Shown: piece by piece, positions 7,574 through 29,802 of the stretch
Position numbering within the stretch: position 1 is the stretch's first letter
Layout: each line of letters opens with the position of its first letter
NCBI GenBank assembly: GCA_965199855.1
Contig: OZ241326.1
Span: 2,211,908 to 2,275,907 of the forward strand
Direction: 5' to 3'
DNA from: a bacterium
GTDB taxonomy: Bacteria > UBA8248
DNA length: 64,000 nt
Notes under the pieces: model-generated
What the model was told of the DNA's origin: nothing
What the model saw: the letters and a program-made list of their open reading frames with translations, nothing else
The model's database searches: none
Translations under genes and position numbers: made by a program

Positions 7574-8475
7574 GCGGCGGAATCCTGATCTACCGCATGG
7601 GGGCGTTCGGGGACACGCTCCTGCTCGCGCCGCTGCTCGGACGCCTGCGGGAGGCGCGCCCGGGCGTTCGCCTCACCCTGGCGGCGAACCCCGCATACGC
7701 CGCTCCCCTGCTCGACGCGGGGCTGGCGGAGGAGATTCTGGACGGGGGCGCGCCTCCCTTTCATCTTCTCTATGACGGGCGGCCATCGGAGAACGACGCG
7801 CTCGCCCGGCTCATCCGGCGGCATGACGCCTGCGTCTTCTACACCGCCGACCGCTCGGGAGAGCTGGCGAGGCGGCTGCGTTCATCGAGGCCGGAGAAAT
7901 GCCGCGTCCACCCCCCTTTCCCGCCGGAGGGGGAGAGCGTTCACGTCTGCGCGTGGATGACGCGGGCGTGGCCCGGCCTGAGCGCGTCCGCGCCTGAAAG
8001 CATGAAGCTGACGCCTTCGGAAAACAGCCTGTCTGAGGCGGACAACCTATTGAAAAAAAATGGCTTGCGACCTTCCCGCTTCTTCATCCTCCATCCCGGC
8101 GGAGGGGGCGAGAGAAAATGGCCGCCGCCCGACGTTCTCGCGGAGATGGGCCGCGCCCTCGCGCGCGAAACGGGGCATCAGCCGGTCGTGGCGGAAGGGC
8201 CGGCGGATTCGATCGCCAGCGAGAATTTCCAGAAGCTCCCGGGCGCGCCCCTGCCGGTCCTCAGGGAAACGCCGCCCGTCATCCTGGGCGCCCTGCTCTC
8301 GAGGTCGTCCGGGTATATCGGGGGCGATTCCGGCGTCTCCCATCTCGCCTCTCTCTACGCGCCGCGCGCCTCGATACTGTATGGCCCCCATTCCGACATG
8401 AGGGTCTGGCGACCGATAGGCTCCCGAACGCGCTGCCTGTCCTGGGAGGCGGAGCGGAGGAGCGCGTTCGGGTGA
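7570..8475 (+). CDS. Glycosyltransferase family 9 (LPS heptosyltransferase-like).
   Basis: 301 aa. N-terminal ILIYRMGAFGDTLL and C-terminal …GYIGGDSGVSHLA are GT9 (RfaF/WaaC-like) hallmarks. The TTG start overlaps the rsmA stop (TTGA). Confidence 0.7.
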   Translation: MSGGILIYRMGAFGDTLLLAPLLGRLREARPGVRLTLAANPAYAAPLLDAGLAEEILDGGAPPFHLLYDGRPSENDALARLIRRHDACVFYTADRSGELARRLRSSRPEKCRVHPPFPPEGESVHVCAWMTRAWPGLSASAPESMKLTPSENSLSEADNLLKKNGLRPSRFFILHPGGGGERKWPPPDVLAEMGRALARETGHQPVVAEGPADSIASENFQKLPGAPLPVLRETPPVILGALLSRSSGYIGGDSGVSHLASLYAPRASILYGPHSDMRVWRPIGSRTRCLSWEAERRSAFG

Positions 8476-14937: not shown

Positions 14938-16188
14938 ATGCCGCAAGAGGAGCAGGTCAGCGTCTTCGAGACCGCGAGCGCGCAGTTCGACGAGGCGGCG
15001 GCGCACGTCGATCTGGACGATGAGGTTCGCCACCTCCTCAAGACGCCCTTCCGCGAGGTGAAGGTAGAAATCCCCATCCGCAGGGACGACGGCTCTCTCG
15101 GCGTCTGGGAGGGATACCGCATCCAGTTCAACGGCGCGCGGGGGCCGTTCAAGGGCGGAATCCGCTACCACCACGAGGTGGACCCGGACGAGGTGCGCGG
15201 CCTCTCCGCGCTCATGGCGTGGAAGACGGCGCTCGTCAACATTCCGTTCGGGGGCGGCAAGGGCGGCATCTGCGTCAACGTGGGGGAGCTCAGCCGCTTC
15301 GAGCTGGAGCGGCTCACGAGAAAATACACCGCGCGCATCGGGCGCGTCCTGGGGCCCTACCGCGACATTCCCGCCCCCGACGTGAACACGAACGCGCAGG
15401 TGATGGCGTGGATTTTCGATGAATACAGCAGCCGCCACGGCTACGCGCCGGCCTGCGTCACGGGAAAGCCCGTGTCCATGGGCGGCTCCCCGGGGCGCGA
15501 GGCCGCCACCGGGCGGGGCGCCGTGATGGCGTTCGGGGAGGTCGCCAAAAAGGAGGGCTGGGAGCCCGCCACCATGACGGCGGCGATTCAGGGCTTCGGG
15601 AACGTGGGCGCCTTCGCCGCCAGGTTCATCGGCGATCTGGGGGTGAAGGTGGTGGCGATATCGGGCAGCCGGGGCGCCTGCTTCAACGGGGACGGCGTCG
15701 ACGTCGAGGCGGCCGCCGCCCACCGCAGGGAGCACGGGACGCTGGAGGGCCTCGCGGGAGCGGAGGAGATCACCAACGAGGAGCTTCTCGCCCTCGACGT
15801 GGACGTCCTGGTTCCGGCGGCTCTCGGCGGCGCGATTCACGCGGGCAACGCGGCGGACGTGAAGGCGCGCGTCATCGTGGAAGGGGCGAACGCTCCCGTA
15901 ACCGACCGGGGCGAGAAGACGCTGGCCGAGAGCGGCCGCGTCGTGGTGATACCCGACGTGCTGGCGAGCGCGGGCGGCGTCACGGTCTCCTACTTTGAAT
16001 GGGCGCAGAACATCCAGCAGTTCGCCTGGGACGAGGAGCGGGTGAACGCCGAGCTGGGCAGAATCATGGCGCGCGCCACGGCCGAGGTGCATGAGCTGGC
16101 GAAGGAGAAAGGCGTCTCGCTGCGCGCGGCGGCCTTCATCATCGCGATTGAAAGGGTGGCGGAGGCGGAGCGCCTTCGCGGCGTATAG
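14938..16188 (+). CDS. Glutamate dehydrogenase (Glu/Leu/Phe/Val dehydrogenase family).
   Basis: 416 aa. KGGIRYH, NIPFGGGKGG (active-site Lys box), and a GFGNVG Rossmann motif. Confidence 0.9.
   Translation: MPQEEQVSVFETASAQFDEAAAHVDLDDEVRHLLKTPFREVKVEIPIRRDDGSLGVWEGYRIQFNGARGPFKGGIRYHHEVDPDEVRGLSALMAWKTALVNIPFGGGKGGICVNVGELSRFELERLTRKYTARIGRVLGPYRDIPAPDVNTNAQVMAWIFDEYSSRHGYAPACVTGKPVSMGGSPGREAATGRGAVMAFGEVAKKEGWEPATMTAAIQGFGNVGAFAARFIGDLGVKVVAISGSRGACFNGDGVDVEAAAAHRREHGTLEGLAGAEEITNEELLALDVDVLVPAALGGAIHAGNAADVKARVIVEGANAPVTDRGEKTLAESGRVVVIPDVLASAGGVTVSYFEWAQNIQQFAWDEERVNAELGRIMARATAEVHELAKEKGVSLRAAAFIIAIERVAEAERLRGV

Positions 16189-21921: not shown

Positions 21922-21925
<4 letters not shown>
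21476..21925 (-). CDS. DUF3465-family secreted protein.
   Basis: 149 aa. Signal peptide, then …[38 protein letters not shown]…[19 protein letters not shown]…[11 protein letters not shown], which matches DUF3465 conserved blocks from memory. Confidence 0.55.
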
Positions 21926-25173
<3,248 letters not shown>

Positions 25174-25279: not shown

Positions 25280-26371
25280 TCACTCCCCCACGCAGAAGCT
25301 GAAGAATTCGTCGAACAGCGCGCCCGCGTCATGCGGGCCGGGGCGGGCCTCGGGGTGATACTGCACGCTGAAGACTTTGGGGGCGTCCGAGCGAAGCCCC
25401 TCGCAGGTTCCGTCGTTCAGGGAGGAATGCGTGACGGCGACGCCCGCCGGCAGGCTTTCGGGGTCCACGGCGAAGGAGTGGTTCTGGGAGGTGATGGCCA
25501 CCTTCCGCGTGGCCGCGTCCCGGACGGGGTGGTTCGCCCCGTGGTGGCCGAACTTGAGCTTGTAGGTTCTGCCGCCCAGCGCCCGGGCGAGGATTTGATG
25601 CCCCAGGCAGATGCCCACGACGGGAACCCGGCCGATGATGCGCCGCGCGCTCTCGACGACGTAGCCGAGGGCGGCGGGGTCTCCCGGGCCGTTCGAGAGG
25701 AAAACGGCCGCGGGCCTCCTCGCCAGGACGCTGTCCGCCTCCTCGGAGGCCGGCACGACCTCCAGGTCGAACCTTCGGCTGAGCTCCCGGAAGATGTTGT
25801 CCTTCGCGCCCAGGTCGTAGGCCACGCAGAGCGGGCGGCCCCTTCTCTCGCCGTAGGCGCGCGCGGCGGCGCAGGTCACGTCCTTCACCAGGTCGCGCCC
25901 GTCCAGCCCGGGGCTCTCCCTGGCGCGCCTGACGAGGCCGTCCTCGTCCGGCTCCCGCGTGGAGAGCGCGGCGCGCAGGGCGCCCGCCTCCCGGATGTGG
26001 CGCGTGAGCGCGCGGGTGTCCACGCCCTCGATGCCGGGGACGCCCTCCCTCTTCAGGTAGGCGTCCAGGCTCTCGCTCGCCCGGAAGTTGCTGTGCCGCC
26101 GGCAGACCTCCTTCACGATGAACGCCTCGACCCAGACGCGGCGGGATTCCCCGTCGCCCGGAATGACGCCGTAGTTCCCGACGTGGGGATAGGTCATCAC
26201 CACCATCTGGCCGCGGTAGGAGGGATCGGTGAGCGTCTCCTGATAGCCCGTCATCGCCGTGTTGAAGACGAGCTCGCCCTCGGCGTCCGCCTCCGCCCCG
26301 AAGCCCGCGCCCCGGAAGACCCTGCCGTCCTCCAGCGCCAGGAGCGCCGGCCTGGCTTTTCGCCCCCTCAT
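25280..26371 (-). CDS. carA: Carbamoyl-phosphate synthase small subunit (glutamine amidotransferase).
   Basis: 363 aa from MRGRKARPALLALEDG… Contains CPSase_sm_chain plus a class I GATase with GICLGHQ catalytic Cys and HPE. The start overlaps pyrC's 3' end by 4 nt. Confidence 0.9.
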   Translation of the reverse strand: MRGRKARPALLALEDGRVFRGAGFGAEADAEGELVFNTAMTGYQETLTDPSYRGQMVVMTYPHVGNYGVIPGDGESRRVWVEAFIVKEVCRRHSNFRASESLDAYLKREGVPGIEGVDTRALTRHIREAGALRAALSTREPDEDGLVRRARESPGLDGRDLVKDVTCAAARAYGERRGRPLCVAYDLGAKDNIFRELSRRFDLEVVPASEEADSVLARRPAAVFLSNGPGDPAALGYVVESARRIIGRVPVVGICLGHQILARALGGRTYKLKFGHHGANHPVRDAATRKVAITSQNHSFAVDPESLPAGVAVTHSSLNDGTCEGLRSDAPKVFSVQYHPEARPGPHDAGALFDEFFSFCVGE

Positions 26372-27690
26372 GGCGCGAGCGCCCCCCGCGCGGAGATTCG
26401 GAGCTCCCCGTCGAGCCGGCTCATCCGCACCTCTCCGCCGACGACGGCGGCCGCGGCGCAGCCCCTGAGCCTCCAGCCCGCGAAGGGCGTGTTCCTGCCG
26501 CGGCTCTCGAAGGCGTCCGGCTCCACGACCACCTCGCGCGCGGGGTCGAGCAGGGTCGCGTCCCCGGGCGCGCCCTCCCGCAGGGTGCCGTAGGGCAGGC
26601 CCAGCGCCTCGCAGGGCCCGGTGGTGAACTTCGCTATCATCTCGGCGAGGGTGAGCGCGCCCGCGCCCACCAGCCTGTCCAGGGCGAGGGAGACGGCCGT
26701 CTCCAGCCCCACGACGCCGAACGGCACGGCGTCGAACTCCCGCTGGGTCTCCGCCTCGTAGTGCGGGGCGTGGTCGGAGGCGATGACGGAGATGGTCCCG
26801 TCCTTCAGGCCCTCCAGGAGCGCGCGCCTGTCCTCCTCGCCGCGGAGCGGAGGCGCCATCTTCGCGGAGGAGTCGAACCCGCGCGTCGCCTCGTCCGTGA
26901 GGGAGAAGTGGTGCGGCGTCGCCTCGCCCGTCACCCGGAGGCCGCGCGCCCGCGCCCGGCGAACCATGTCCACCGCGCCGGCGGAGGAGAGATGCAGGAG
27001 GTGGAGCTTGCCCCCCGTCAGCTCCGCCAGCCGGATGTCCCGATAGACGCAGATGTCCTCGCTCGCCGCCGGGTTTCCGGCCAGGCCGAGCATGGTGGAC
27101 ACCGCGCCCTCGTTCATCACCCGGCCGGCCGAAAGCGAGGCGTCCTCCGCGTGGTCGAGCACGCTCACCCCCAGCATTCCGGCGTATTCGAGCGCGGAGC
27201 GCATGAGCGCGGCCGTCCGCACCGGCACGCCGTCGTCGCTGAAGGCCACCGCGCCGGCCTCCACCTGCTCGGCCATCTCGCTCAGCGCCTCTCCCTCCAG
27301 CCCCACCGAAACCGAGCCGACGGGAAACACGCGGCACGCCCCCACCTCGCGCGCGCGCTTGAGGATGCGCTCGGTGATCGAACTCGTGTCGTTCACCGGG
27401 TCGGTGTTCGCCATGCACGCCACGCCGGTGAAGCCGCCGGCGGCCGCGGCGCGGGTGCCGCTTTCGATGTCCTCCTTGTATTCCTGCCCCGGCTCGCGGA
27501 AGTGGACGTGCATGTCGATGAAGCCGGGCGCCACGACGAGGCCCGCGGCGTCGAGCACCTCGTCCCCCTCGCGCGGGGCGATGCTCCTCTCCCTGCGCGC
27601 GACCCTGCCCTCCTCTATCAGGAGGTCGCTCTCCTCATCGACACCCTGGGAGGGATCGACGACGCGCCCGCCCTTAATGAGCAACGGCAT
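26368..27690 (-). CDS. pyrC: Dihydroorotase (multimeric DHOase type).
   Basis: 440 aa from MPLLIKGGRVVDPSQG… Metal-binding motifs (DMHVHFREPG…; ASDHAPH). The ORF track's upstream 119 codons are read-through. Confidence 0.85.
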   Translation of the reverse strand: MPLLIKGGRVVDPSQGVDEESDLLIEEGRVARRERSIAPREGDEVLDAAGLVVAPGFIDMHVHFREPGQEYKEDIESGTRAAAAGGFTGVACMANTDPVNDTSSITERILKRAREVGACRVFPVGSVSVGLEGEALSEMAEQVEAGAVAFSDDGVPVRTAALMRSALEYAGMLGVSVLDHAEDASLSAGRVMNEGAVSTMLGLAGNPAASEDICVYRDIRLAELTGGKLHLLHLSSAGAVDMVRRARARGLRVTGEATPHHFSLTDEATRGFDSSAKMAPPLRGEEDRRALLEGLKDGTISVIASDHAPHYEAETQREFDAVPFGVVGLETAVSLALDRLVGAGALTLAEMIAKFTTGPCEALGLPYGTLREGAPGDATLLDPAREVVVEPDAFESRGRNTPFAGWRLRGCAAAAVVGGEVRMSRLDGELRISARGALAP

Positions 27691-28693
27691 CCCGCGCCCC
27701 CCTTCGCGCCCTCTCCGGGGCGGCGTCCGCCTCCCCATCCGGCTCCGCCTCCTCCCGCTCCTCCTCCCTCCTGCCCGAGAGGAGATAGAGAATCGCCATG
27801 CGGCAGGCGACCCCGTATTCGACCTGCTCCAGAATGACGGAGAAGGGGCCGTCGGCCACGTCGGGAGCCATCTCCACCCCCCGGTTGATCGGCCCCGGGT
27901 GCATGATGAGCAGGTCCCGCCCGGCGTCCCGCAGCTTCTTCCTGGTGATCCCGTAGGAGCTGGCGTATTCGCGCTCGCTGGGAAAGGCGCCGCCGGCACC
28001 CCTCTCCAGCTGGATTCTGAGGGCGATGAGGACGTCCGCCCCGTCAATCGCCTCGTCGATCCGCGTCGTCGCGCGCGCGCCCAGGCATTCGACCTCGGCC
28101 GGCAGCATCGTGGAGGGGCCGCAGAAGGTGACCTCGGCGCCGAGCTTCAGGAGGCCGGCCGCGTTCGAGCGCGCCACGCGGCTGCGCGCGATGTCTCCCA
28201 CGATGGAGACGCGGAGCCCCTCGAACTTCTCCTTGTGCGCCCGGATGGTGTAGAGGTCGAGGAGCGCCTGGGTGGGATGCTCGTGGCAGCCGTCGCCCGC
28301 GTTCACGACGGCGCACCCGAGTTCGCGGCCCAGATAGGCGGGCGCGCCGGACGCCCAATGCCGCACGACGAGGACGTCCGTGGCCATCGCCTCGATGTTT
28401 CTCGCCGTGTCCCGCAGGGTCTCCCCCTTGCTCGCCGAGCTCGCGGCGACGGAGAGGTTGATGACGTCCGCCGAGAGGCGCTTGCCGGCGATCTCGAAGG
28501 AGGCGCGCGTCCTCGTGCTGTTCTCGAAGAACAGGTTGACGATCGTCTTGCCCCGCAGGGTGGGAACCTTCTTGACGGCGCGCTCGTTGATCTCGCGGAA
28601 GGAATCCGTCTGGTCGAGGAGAAACAATATCTCCCCGGGCTCGAGCTCCCGAATCGAGAGCAGATCCTTTCTCCGGTACGGCTCCGTTTTCAT
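27674..28693 (-). CDS. pyrB: Aspartate carbamoyltransferase catalytic subunit.
   Basis: 339 aa from MKTEPYRRKDLLSIREL… STRTR carbamoyl-phosphate site, HPTQ, and an HPGP…INRG Asp-binding half. Confidence 0.9.
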   Translation of the reverse strand: MKTEPYRRKDLLSIRELEPGEILFLLDQTDSFREINERAVKKVPTLRGKTIVNLFFENSTRTRASFEIAGKRLSADVINLSVAASSASKGETLRDTARNIEAMATDVLVVRHWASGAPAYLGRELGCAVVNAGDGCHEHPTQALLDLYTIRAHKEKFEGLRVSIVGDIARSRVARSNAAGLLKLGAEVTFCGPSTMLPAEVECLGARATTRIDEAIDGADVLIALRIQLERGAGGAFPSEREYASSYGITRKKLRDAGRDLLIMHPGPINRGVEMAPDVADGPFSVILEQVEYGVACRMAILYLLSGRREEEREEAEPDGEADAAPERARRGARDAVAH

Positions 28694-28715: not shown

Positions 28716-29252
28716 TCATTCCGGCTGCCGGAATCGCTTGAAGACGGCGTCCTCGCCGTCGGTCTCCTCAAGATGCACCCGCACCTCCTCGCCCCGCGCC
28801 GCCTCGACGTTCCTGCCGACGAAATCGGCGCGAATCGGCAGTTCGCGCCCCCCCCTGTCCACCAGAATCGCGAGCCGCGCCCTGCGGGGCCGGCCGAAGC
28901 TGACCAGCGCCGCCAGGGCGGCGCGCGCCGTCCGCCCCGTGCAGAGCACGTCGTCGACGAGAATCACGTCCTTCCCCTCGCAGGAGAAGGGAAGCTCCGT
29001 CTTCTTGAGCTTCGTCCGCGCGCCGCCGCCCCGGTTCAGGTCGTCCCGATAGAGGGTGACGTCGAGCGCGCCCACCGGCGGGCGCGAACCCGCCAGCGCG
29101 CGCAGCTCCCCGGCCAGCCTCTCGGCGAGCGGCGCGCCCCTCGTGCGGATGCCGATGAGCGCGAGCGCCGGCAGCTCCGCCGTCTGCTCGAGAATCTCGT
29201 GCGCGAGGCGCCTCAGCGTCCGCCTCAGCTGCCCGCCGTCGAGCTGCTTCAT
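28716..29252 (-). CDS. pyrR: Bifunctional pyrimidine operon regulator / uracil phosphoribosyltransferase PyrR.
   Basis: 178 aa from MKQLDGGQLRRTL… PRTase motif VILVDDVLCTGRTARAA; B. subtilis PyrR-like overall. It is the first gene of the pyrR-pyrB-pyrC-carA-carB operon. Confidence 0.85.
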   Translation of the reverse strand: MKQLDGGQLRRTLRRLAHEILEQTAELPALALIGIRTRGAPLAERLAGELRALAGSRPPVGALDVTLYRDDLNRGGGARTKLKKTELPFSCEGKDVILVDDVLCTGRTARAALAALVSFGRPRRARLAILVDRGGRELPIRADFVGRNVEAARGEEVRVHLEETDGEDAVFKRFRQPE

Positions 29253-29290
29253 CTTCGGGGCGAAGGCCGCCGGCCTGCCGGCCGCGCGCG

Positions 29291-29324
29291 AAAAAAAACG
29301 CCACGCCCCGGGGGGCATGGCGTT
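29291..29324 (-). terminator. Intrinsic terminator / attenuator hairpin in the pyrR 5' leader (about 40 nt upstream of the pyrR start).
   Basis: RNA-sense (minus strand) AACGCCAUGCCCCCCGGGGCGUGGCG followed by UUUUUUUU. It forms an ~10-bp GC-rich stem (one G-U pair) plus an 8-U tract. Confidence 0.65.
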
Positions 29325-29369
29325 CGGACGATGAGCGAAAAGACACCGGGCATCCGCGCTTCCTCCTTC

Positions 29370-29383
29370 GCCGCCTCACGGGA
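29370..29383 (-). promoter_or_regulatory. Candidate PyrR-binding loop (PyrR RNA element) in the pyr operon leader.
   Basis: RNA sense GUCCCGUGAGGCGG matches the PyrR binding-loop core consensus UCCNGNGAGGYU. It lies ~50 nt upstream of the attenuator hairpin, the arrangement of Bacillus-type pyr attenuation. Confidence 0.5.
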
Positions 29384-29487
29384 CGGCATTAAAGGGGAAT
29401 CCCACGCTGTTCTCGTTCGGCGGCGGGCGCGCCGAGACTATTTGGCCGAACCTAGCAGTATTCTCCGCCGGGGGCAAGCGGAATTCC

Positions 29488-29802
29488 TTACGCGCGCTTC
29501 AGAAAATCCATCGCCTCGCCCGAAGCCTCCCCGCGCGCGTCCGCCGGGGGGGCGGATTCCTCCAGAATCTCGAACAGGGCGGCGGCTTCTTTCTTCGACA
29601 TCCGGCGTCCGGCCTCGCCCAGCACCCGAACGCGCAGCGTCCTGCTTTCGAGCCGCACCCTCAGCACGTCCCCGACCTCGACCCGCGAGGAGGCTTTCGC
29701 CGCCCTTCCGTCGATGAGAACGGCGCCCTCATCCACGAGGCTCCTGGCCGCCGAGCGCCGCTTCACCAGGCGGCTGTCGCGCAAAAAGCGATCCAGGCGC
29801 AT
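29488..29802 (-). CDS. S4-domain RNA-binding protein (Hsp15/RqcP-like).
   Basis: 104 aa. MRLDRFLRDSRLVKRRSAARSLVDEGAVLIDGRAAKASSRV is a canonical S4 motif. Confidence 0.6.
   Translation of the reverse strand: MRLDRFLRDSRLVKRRSAARSLVDEGAVLIDGRAAKASSRVEVGDVLRVRLESRTLRVRVLGEAGRRMSKKEAAALFEILEESAPPADARGEASGEAMDFLKRA

Follow-up and report, generated by a model that had tools for sequence, protein, structure and literature searches.

A PyrR-binding attenuator leader ahead of pyrR-pyrB-pyrC-carA-carB in a UBA8248 bacterium and its possible read-out through a translated leader frame

Introduction

How does a high-G+C (guanine plus cytosine) bacterium outside the Firmicutes use the RNA-binding regulator PyrR to control its pyrimidine genes? 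The question is raised by a stretch of 64,000 nucleotides (nt) of bacterial DNA, referred to below as the window (GTDB lineage UBA8248; assembly GCA_965199855.1, contig OZ241326.1, positions 2,211,908 to 2,275,907), which has a G+C content of 68% and carries a pyrR-pyrB-pyrC-carA-carB operon preceded by a leader on the minus strand. The first-pass annotation had placed a Bacillus-type PyrR attenuation leader at 29253-29487. These positions are exactly the 235-nt gap from the stop of a gene for a 104-residue S4-domain protein (29488-29802) to the pyrR AUG at 29252, and the features described there are all present, on the minus strand, to which the leader and operon coordinates given below refer. 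In Bacillus pyr attenuation the antiterminator is formed by the 3' strand of the PyrR-binding hairpin pairing with the 5' arm of the terminator. A different arrangement was reportedly proposed by Van de Casteele et al. in 1997 for Thermus ZO5, namely PyrR-dependent pyr attenuation in which a translating ribosome blocks the terminator and no antiterminator is involved. Hence, two questions have to be separated: whether the leader is a PyrR-binding attenuator at all, and how the binding of PyrR would be read out by the transcription machinery. We find that the leader is very probably a PyrR-binding transcription attenuator (probability about 0.9). Its read-out is somewhat better described by the ribosome-mediated, Thermus-type proposal than by an RNA antiterminator (probability about 0.55).

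Results

The first-pass annotation had pointed to the Rfam PyrR model as a means of checking the site, and the comparison is positive over the full length of the model: RF00515 (PyrR binding site) matches 29399..29291 on the minus strand across model positions 1-115 of 115, scoring 56.3 bits (gathering score 54, E = 4.6e-5). No other Rfam family attains its gathering score in the window, and no second match to the PyrR model was found within 15000-40000, even at E up to 10. In the Rfam alignment the PyrR-binding hairpin occupies 29362..29397 (-) and combines a lower stem CCCCUUU/AAGGAGG, an internal AAU, and an upper stem GCCGUC/GGCGGC (29387-29382 with 29375-29370, -) capped by the loop CCGUGA (29381-29376). 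The loop-proximal recognition motif UCCCGUGAGG, which had been singled out as the binding loop, is indeed present at 29383..29374 (-) within GUCCCGUGAGGCGG. On its own the hairpin folds at -19.0 kcal/mol. It lies on the coding strand and ends 110 nt before the pyrR AUG, in a genome that encodes PyrR.

A G+C-rich intergenic region might, by chance, bring together a short motif and a hairpin. The bare 9-nt core CCNGNGAGG has 39 copies across both strands of the window, and at 68% G+C the short motif alone therefore proves nothing; the Rfam score, moreover, is just 2.3 bits over the gathering score, a level under which several clearly homologous loci fall, including that of the nearest relative (L001, see below) and a Thermus locus (L002). 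Against such a chance resemblance, the full hairpin pattern UUUAA-stem-CCNGNGAGR-stem-AAGG has a single occurrence in the window, directly upstream of pyrR. The same hairpin precedes pyrR in 92 of 160 loci fetched from a genome scan and a metagenome scan. In an alignment of 76 distinct sites no variation occurs in the CC-G-GAG of the loop region or in the AA-G of the 3' strand, and the window hairpin has every one of the invariant positions. The six pairs of the upper stem are paired in 97.8% of cases across these 76 sites, and in four of them both partners have changed, each time in 21 to 40 sequences; the resulting covariation score was reached by none of 500 shuffles of the alignment.

The closest relative recovered by the genome scan is L001, with 68% identity in PyrR and the same upstream gene; the next relatives have at most 59%, and the metagenome scan returned none above 59%. 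L001 (metagenome-assembled genome ODZ_NOB7a) has been assigned to the candidate phylum UBA8248, formerly within Nitrospinota (PMC11373643). Its hairpin is almost base-for-base identical to that of the window. The hairpin is, furthermore, unchanged across ten near-identical strains recovered from metagenomes through a look-up of the exact protein. With these observations chance resemblance is already effectively refuted. The scarcity of close relatives and the near-invariance of the strains mean that covariation can be assessed for the binding hairpin only and not for the expression platform.

The second component of an attenuator begins 48 nt past the recognition motif, leaving 38 nt between its end and the pyrR AUG. 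It is an intrinsic terminator at 29325..29291 (-), which consists of a 13-base-pair stem GAACGCCAUGCCC/GGGCGUGGCGUUU with a loop of 4 (29325..29296) and a tract of eight U (29298..29291); with 8 G-C pairs and -23.3 kcal/mol, it is called as a strong terminator, and all minimum-free-energy folds computed for the full leader contain it. The G+C-rich hairpin with U8 noted just before pyrR in the first-pass annotation thus corresponds to this element. Runs of T or A of at least 8 are rare in the window (2 in 64 kilobases against 0.06 expected), and the terminator U8 is one of them. The other, a T8 on the minus strand at 8053-8060, may belong to a further intrinsic terminator. The binding hairpin and the terminator are separated by a central hairpin, CGGAUG ... 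CGUCCG (29325..29356, -), which corresponds to the low-confidence middle hairpin of the RF00515 alignment.

Upstream of the binding hairpin we recognize a candidate promoter, TTGCCC-17 nt-TAGGTT, with a candidate -35 element at 29472..29477 (-) and a candidate -10 element at 29449..29454 (-). It aligns with TTGATC-17 nt-TAGATT in L001, and among the strains the -35 also reads TTGTCC or TTGTTC and the -10 in some cases TAGATT. A consensus promoter scan of the region found 0 promoters, the candidate falling under its threshold; the call is made because of the conservation with L001 and not on the consensus scan. From the position of these elements the transcript start is predicted at about 29441-29443, which would give a leader of approximately 190 nt. 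In the 261-nt region compared across the ten strains, 6 of 7 variable columns fall in 29474-29440, in or just past the candidate promoter: they affect the -35, one spacer position, the -10 and a pair of positions where transcription is predicted to begin. The transcribed leader of about 190 nt has one change among the ten strains.

Together, the hairpin, the terminator, the pyr operon and the PyrR match place the leader in the class of PyrR-dependent attenuation, as originally claimed, and we regard the observation of a PyrR-binding hairpin with an attenuator as confirmed. One might still ask if the control is exerted on translation alone, in the manner of Mycobacterium, with the hairpin and U8 downstream being unregulated, either as a leaky constitutive terminator or as the terminator of the S4-domain gene. 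Many high-G+C loci from actinobacteria, Binatia and Udaeobacter do have the binding hairpin 40-90 nt from pyrR without any terminator, and the window hairpin does bury a Shine-Dalgarno sequence. However, 110 nt separate this buried Shine-Dalgarno from the pyrR AUG downstream, it would serve a leader frame (see below) and not pyrR, and a terminator of -23.3 kcal/mol with U8 stands between the hairpin and pyrR. Since the L001-conserved candidate promoter is situated between the S4-domain gene and the hairpin, the terminator would belong inside the pyr leader and not to the end of the upstream gene. Accordingly, we consider repression of translation alone to be very improbable here.

The loci of this kind include L013, L029, L050, L053, L058, L075, L093, L120, L153 and L156, all with the hairpin 40-90 nt from pyrR and no terminator. 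Such terminator-less high-G+C loci are consistent with translational control, which would be a third read-out of the same hairpin.

The label "Bacillus-type" fared less well than the assignment to PyrR-dependent attenuation. It implies an RNA-only switch, in which an antiterminator formed by the 3' side of the binding hairpin or by the central hairpin competes with the terminator, PyrR stabilizes the binding hairpin, and any reading frame in the leader is a by-product of high G+C. The end-to-end alignment of the window with the hairpin-middle hairpin-terminator architecture of RF00515 would fit such a switch. To compare leaders, we took 49 with both the hairpin and a strong terminator and folded them up to the terminator loop, either free or with the hairpin forced. 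In these computations the terminator 5' arm pairs with the hairpin region at a median of 0.72 in Firmicute leaders and at 0.15 in the window. The same value is 0.73 in a Bacillus leader (L064), 0.92 in a Limnochordales leader (L024), and 0.00 in both a Deinococcota (L003) and a Meiothermus (L037) leader; in L001 it reaches 0.52, a moderate antiterminator signal that speaks for the RNA-only switch.

The behavior of the binding hairpin points in the same direction as the low pairing value of the window. Firmicute leaders are usually without the binding hairpin in the free RNA, whereas in the window it is formed at 0.93 in a free RNA whose modelled sequence begins at the hairpin; the terminator arm shows little response to forcing the hairpin, its pairing going from 0.30 to 0.21. 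A duplex between the hairpin 3' strand and the terminator 5' arm is possible, with a best energy of -11.0 kcal/mol; this is, however, no better than what shuffled arms give (z = -0.62). The central hairpin offers a further antiterminator-like extension onto the terminator 5' arm (GCG/CGC plus GG.GG/CCCC, in a transcript truncated at 29305), which is weak. The best terminator-free structure of the window lies 18.7 kcal/mol higher in energy; this gap is among the largest of the 49 leaders and likewise disfavors an RNA-only switch. As a discriminator across leaders this energy gap was dropped, the Firmicute median of 11.75 and the 13.5 kcal/mol of the others showing no separation. Another candidate, GCGUGG (29407-29402, -), as a long-range antiterminator enclosing the binding hairpin, was likewise not adopted: it has approximately a 1-in-3 likelihood of occurring by chance and is compatible with the PyrR hairpin. 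This hexamer copies the core of the terminator 3' arm and could pair with CCAUGC in the 5' arm, and a comparable pair, AGGCU/GGCCU, exists in L001. On balance, an RNA-only switch appears less likely in the window than a ribosome-mediated read-out, and it also leaves unexplained the strong Shine-Dalgarno with its AUG, the overlap of the leader frame with pyrR, and the weak Shine-Dalgarno of pyrR itself, to which we now turn.

The AAGGAGG that makes up the 3' strand of the lower stem of the binding hairpin (29362..29368, -) is at the same time a Shine-Dalgarno sequence, 8 nt upstream of an AUG at 29353. From this AUG a leader frame of 34 codons, MPGVFSLIVRTPCPPGRGVFFRARPAGRRPSPRR (29249..29353, -), runs across the terminator and its U-tract, and its UGA overlaps the pyrR AUG in an AUGA (29252-29249). 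Computed duplexes with the anti-Shine-Dalgarno ACCUCCUUA have -11.7 kcal/mol for the leader frame, -5.0 for pyrR and -8.6 for pyrB. The layout in L001 is alike, with AAGGAGG, 8 nt, an AUG and 45 codons that cross the terminator and stop 5 nt past the pyrR GUG, and comparable layouts recur in Thermus, Meiothermus and Deinococcota loci.

This layout was then assessed across leaders as a start codon 1-13 nt after AAGG followed by a frame that remains open into the U-tract, with the expectation derived from shuffled leaders. In named phyla other than the Firmicutes such a frame is present in 10 of 14 leaders against 3.1 expected (P about 1e-4), and among leaders from metagenomic contigs in 12 of 17 against 3.7 expected (P < 5e-5). 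Firmicute leaders are not enriched in it (1 of 15, with 3.2 expected). The Limnochordales leader L024, which has both the frame and an antiterminator, was counted with the other phyla. Most of these leader frames end within a few tens of nucleotides of the pyrR start.

An upstream G+C-rich box, GCGCGCCCGCCGCC (29419..29432, -), is a predicted competitor of the binding hairpin. Given the predicted 5' end of the transcript, its CGCCGCC (29425-29419) is predicted to pair with GGCGGCG (29375-29369), and the fold with the box engaged (-35.8 kcal/mol) would be nearly equal in energy to that with the hairpin (-33.9 kcal/mol). The Shine-Dalgarno of the leader frame is predicted to be unpaired at 0.64 in the free RNA and at 0.15 with the hairpin forced. 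Such a competition between box and hairpin is, in prediction, the kind of switch required if PyrR is to gate translation of the leader.

The leader frame codes for Pro-Pro-Gly (CCC CCG GGG, 29308-29316, -) precisely at the apex of the terminator hairpin. L001 has a Pro-Pro on its terminator 5' arm, and Pro-Pro or Pro-Pro-Gly motifs are not general in the other leader frames. Polyproline stretches slow ribosomes; a ribosome paused at this Pro-Pro-Gly would sit on the terminator.

Several observations weigh against a ribosome-mediated read-out. First, taken alone, the window gives such a frame in 44% of shuffled leaders (L001 in 16%), because stop codons are rare at 68% G+C, a figure that equally suits the RNA-only switch; the support for the leader frame is thus at the level of the class and of the homologous layout, and is not intrinsic to the sequence of the window. 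Second, the window and L001 do not have a conserved leader peptide, and the Phe-Phe present in both is simply encoded by the U-tract. Third, the 5' strand of the central hairpin includes the leader AUG, which by prediction is mostly paired once that hairpin has been made (unpaired 0.01-0.14), and the same hairpin has the antiterminator-like extension described above. Fourth, the upstream box has no evident conservation in L001. Fifth, the structural arguments are thermodynamic predictions on a G+C-rich RNA with many alternative pairings, and the mechanism in Thermus ZO5 is itself said to be a proposal. The single strain difference within the transcribed leader, a synonymous GUC to GUU at leader codon 4, is one event and proves nothing.

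The genes downstream of the leader agree with the operon initially described, family matches being available for PyrR, PyrB, PyrC and CarA, and carB being read from its translation. The first gene, pyrR (28716..29252, -), encodes the regulator itself, of 178 residues (NF003549, 214.8 bits with a cut-off of 138). It is followed by pyrB for aspartate carbamoyltransferase (27674..28693, -; NF002032, 388.7 bits), pyrC for dihydroorotase (26368..27690, -; TIGR00857, 399.4 bits with a cut-off of 279), and carA for the small subunit of carbamoyl-phosphate synthase (25280..26371, -; TIGR01368, 461.4 bits). The large-subunit gene carB (21922..25173, -) was assigned from its 1083-residue translation, which reads as CarB. 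The distance from the pyrR stop to the pyrB start is 22 nt and therefore has no space for a second attenuator. The bacterium is uncultured, and genes for SurA-like and Mfd proteins are found near the operon.

The best solved relative of the PyrR protein is 1ufr (189.8 bits, E = 3.4e-55), which we take to be the Thermus thermophilus PyrR and whose N-terminus agrees with the Thermus-like loci of our set; Bacillus proteins score 153-169 and the Mycobacterium tuberculosis protein 139. Public gene calls start pyrR at an ATG at 29318, inside the 5' arm of the terminator, which yields a 200-residue product with 22 extra residues at the N-terminus. The exact 200-residue protein is recorded on 19 contigs, and the exact 178-residue form is not on record. 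The PyrR homologues, nevertheless, align only from residue 4-5 of the 178-residue form, and no in-frame GUG or UUG occurs between the terminator and the AUG at 29252. The 22 N-terminal residues of the longer form are spurious, and the pyrR start is corrected to the AUG at 29252.

Some further features emerged in the survey of pyrR loci and of the window. In two metagenomic loci the loop motif is duplicated in tandem upstream of pyrR, with copies of CCCGTGAGGCCGG spaced 18 nt apart (in L124 at approximately -90 to -60 and in L155 at approximately -106 to -75 from pyrR). In two loci from Calditrichia a tRNA gene lies directly upstream of pyrR (L008, 2743-2816; L027, 2745-2818). The PyrR leader of L008, with an Rfam match at 2827-2957, begins about 10 nt after the tRNA gene, and in L027 a PyrR site was not detected. 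Finally, the Guanidine-III riboswitch model (RF01763) gives a weak sub-threshold match, probably due to chance, at 15163-15214 on the plus strand of the window (24.9 bits, gathering score 36, E = 0.17).

Discussion

The arrangement of the leader suggests the following course of events under a ribosome-mediated read-out. When pyrimidine nucleotides are low, PyrR would be unbound and the upstream G+C-rich box could open the binding hairpin. With the hairpin open, a ribosome would load at the AAGGAGG of its 3' strand, which would act as the Shine-Dalgarno of the 34-codon frame through the terminator, and trail closely after the RNA polymerase. It would then mask the terminator 5' arm, which begins 28 nt after the leader AUG, such that no terminator hairpin forms and transcription reads through. 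On reaching the stop at the AUGA, termination and reinitiation would lead to translation of pyrR, whose own Shine-Dalgarno is weak. At high uridine monophosphate (UMP) or uridine triphosphate (UTP), PyrR would clamp the hairpin, bury the Shine-Dalgarno and leave the leader untranslated; the terminator would form, transcription would end at about 29291, and the operon, including pyrR, would be off.

Seen against known systems, the leader combines features of several. It shares with RF00515 and the Bacillus subtilis pyr attenuators a hairpin with UUUAA, a CCNGNGAG loop region and AAGG in the 3' strand, and from its sequence would be of the same PyrR-bound sensor type. As in B. subtilis, an intrinsic terminator lies downstream, and control would extend over the pyrimidine genes and pyrR itself. 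It differs from the B. subtilis system in the lack of a convincing antiterminator, and in having one site in place of three, with the 22-nt pyrR-pyrB gap and no second match. The start of its leader frame in the 3' flank of the hairpin also sets it apart from the Firmicute leaders.

The resemblance to Thermus is closer. There, too, the 3' strand of the hairpin contains the Shine-Dalgarno, a start codon follows within a few nucleotides, and a leader frame of approximately 30 codons passes over the terminator and U-tract to finish at the pyrR start or shortly beyond it. The genome is likewise high in G+C, and the window PyrR is most similar to the Thermus-type protein. The differences concern the junction with pyrR, the operon and the organism. 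A strong Shine-Dalgarno, GGAGGUGA, precedes pyrR itself in the Thermus loci, and the leader frame extends over the first pyrR codons there, whereas in the window the Shine-Dalgarno of pyrR is weak and the two frames meet at the AUGA. The operon of the window continues into carA-carB, and the organism is not a member of the Deinococcota.

Two other forms of control offer partial parallels. Mycobacterial PyrR reportedly acts by translational repression, as Fields and Switzer are said to have described in 2007. As in that case, the window has a hairpin in a high-G+C genome at which binding would bury a ribosome-binding site; in mycobacteria, however, it is the first pyr gene whose ribosome-binding site the hairpin overlaps, and a terminator is absent, while that of the window overlaps the site of a leader frame and is followed by a strong terminator. 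With the pyrimidine-gene leader of Escherichia coli the window would share a translated leader peptide and a ribosome that physically blocks an intrinsic terminator. In E. coli the signal is UTP-sensitive pausing of the polymerase without an RNA-binding protein, whereas in the window PyrR would be the gate.

The presence of PyrR control in a high-G+C genome was, by implication, treated in the first-pass annotation as a Firmicute mechanism in an unexpected place. This overstates the case: the PyrR motif has been reported in Actinobacteria, Chloroflexi and Thermus-Deinococcus (PMC3766115 supplement), and a predicted element is located before pyrRBC-carAB in Geobacter (PMC2700814). PyrR sites outside the Firmicutes have been catalogued before, and knowledge of PyrR itself is unchanged. 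The added value of the present analysis is modest and comprises a revised label for the mechanism, the corrected pyrR start and a class-level hint of a common leader-frame design outside the Firmicutes; in terms of annotation, a regulatory leader can be marked where the public gene call placed the beginning of a protein.

The leader-frame design is seen in Deinococcota, Chloroflexota, Acidobacteriota, several former Deltaproteobacteria, Actinomycetes and UBA8248, as well as in the window. Hence, we tentatively propose, at slightly less than even odds, that PyrR-gated, ribosome-mediated antitermination may prevail outside the Firmicutes, with the window as an example that would have three layers: an opening box, a PyrR-clamped hairpin and coupling at an AUGA. 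One protein-binding hairpin seems to have been coupled to two read-outs, an RNA antiterminator in the Firmicutes and a translated leader in many other phyla, and the proposal of 1997 for Thermus may describe a widespread design rather than a curiosity.

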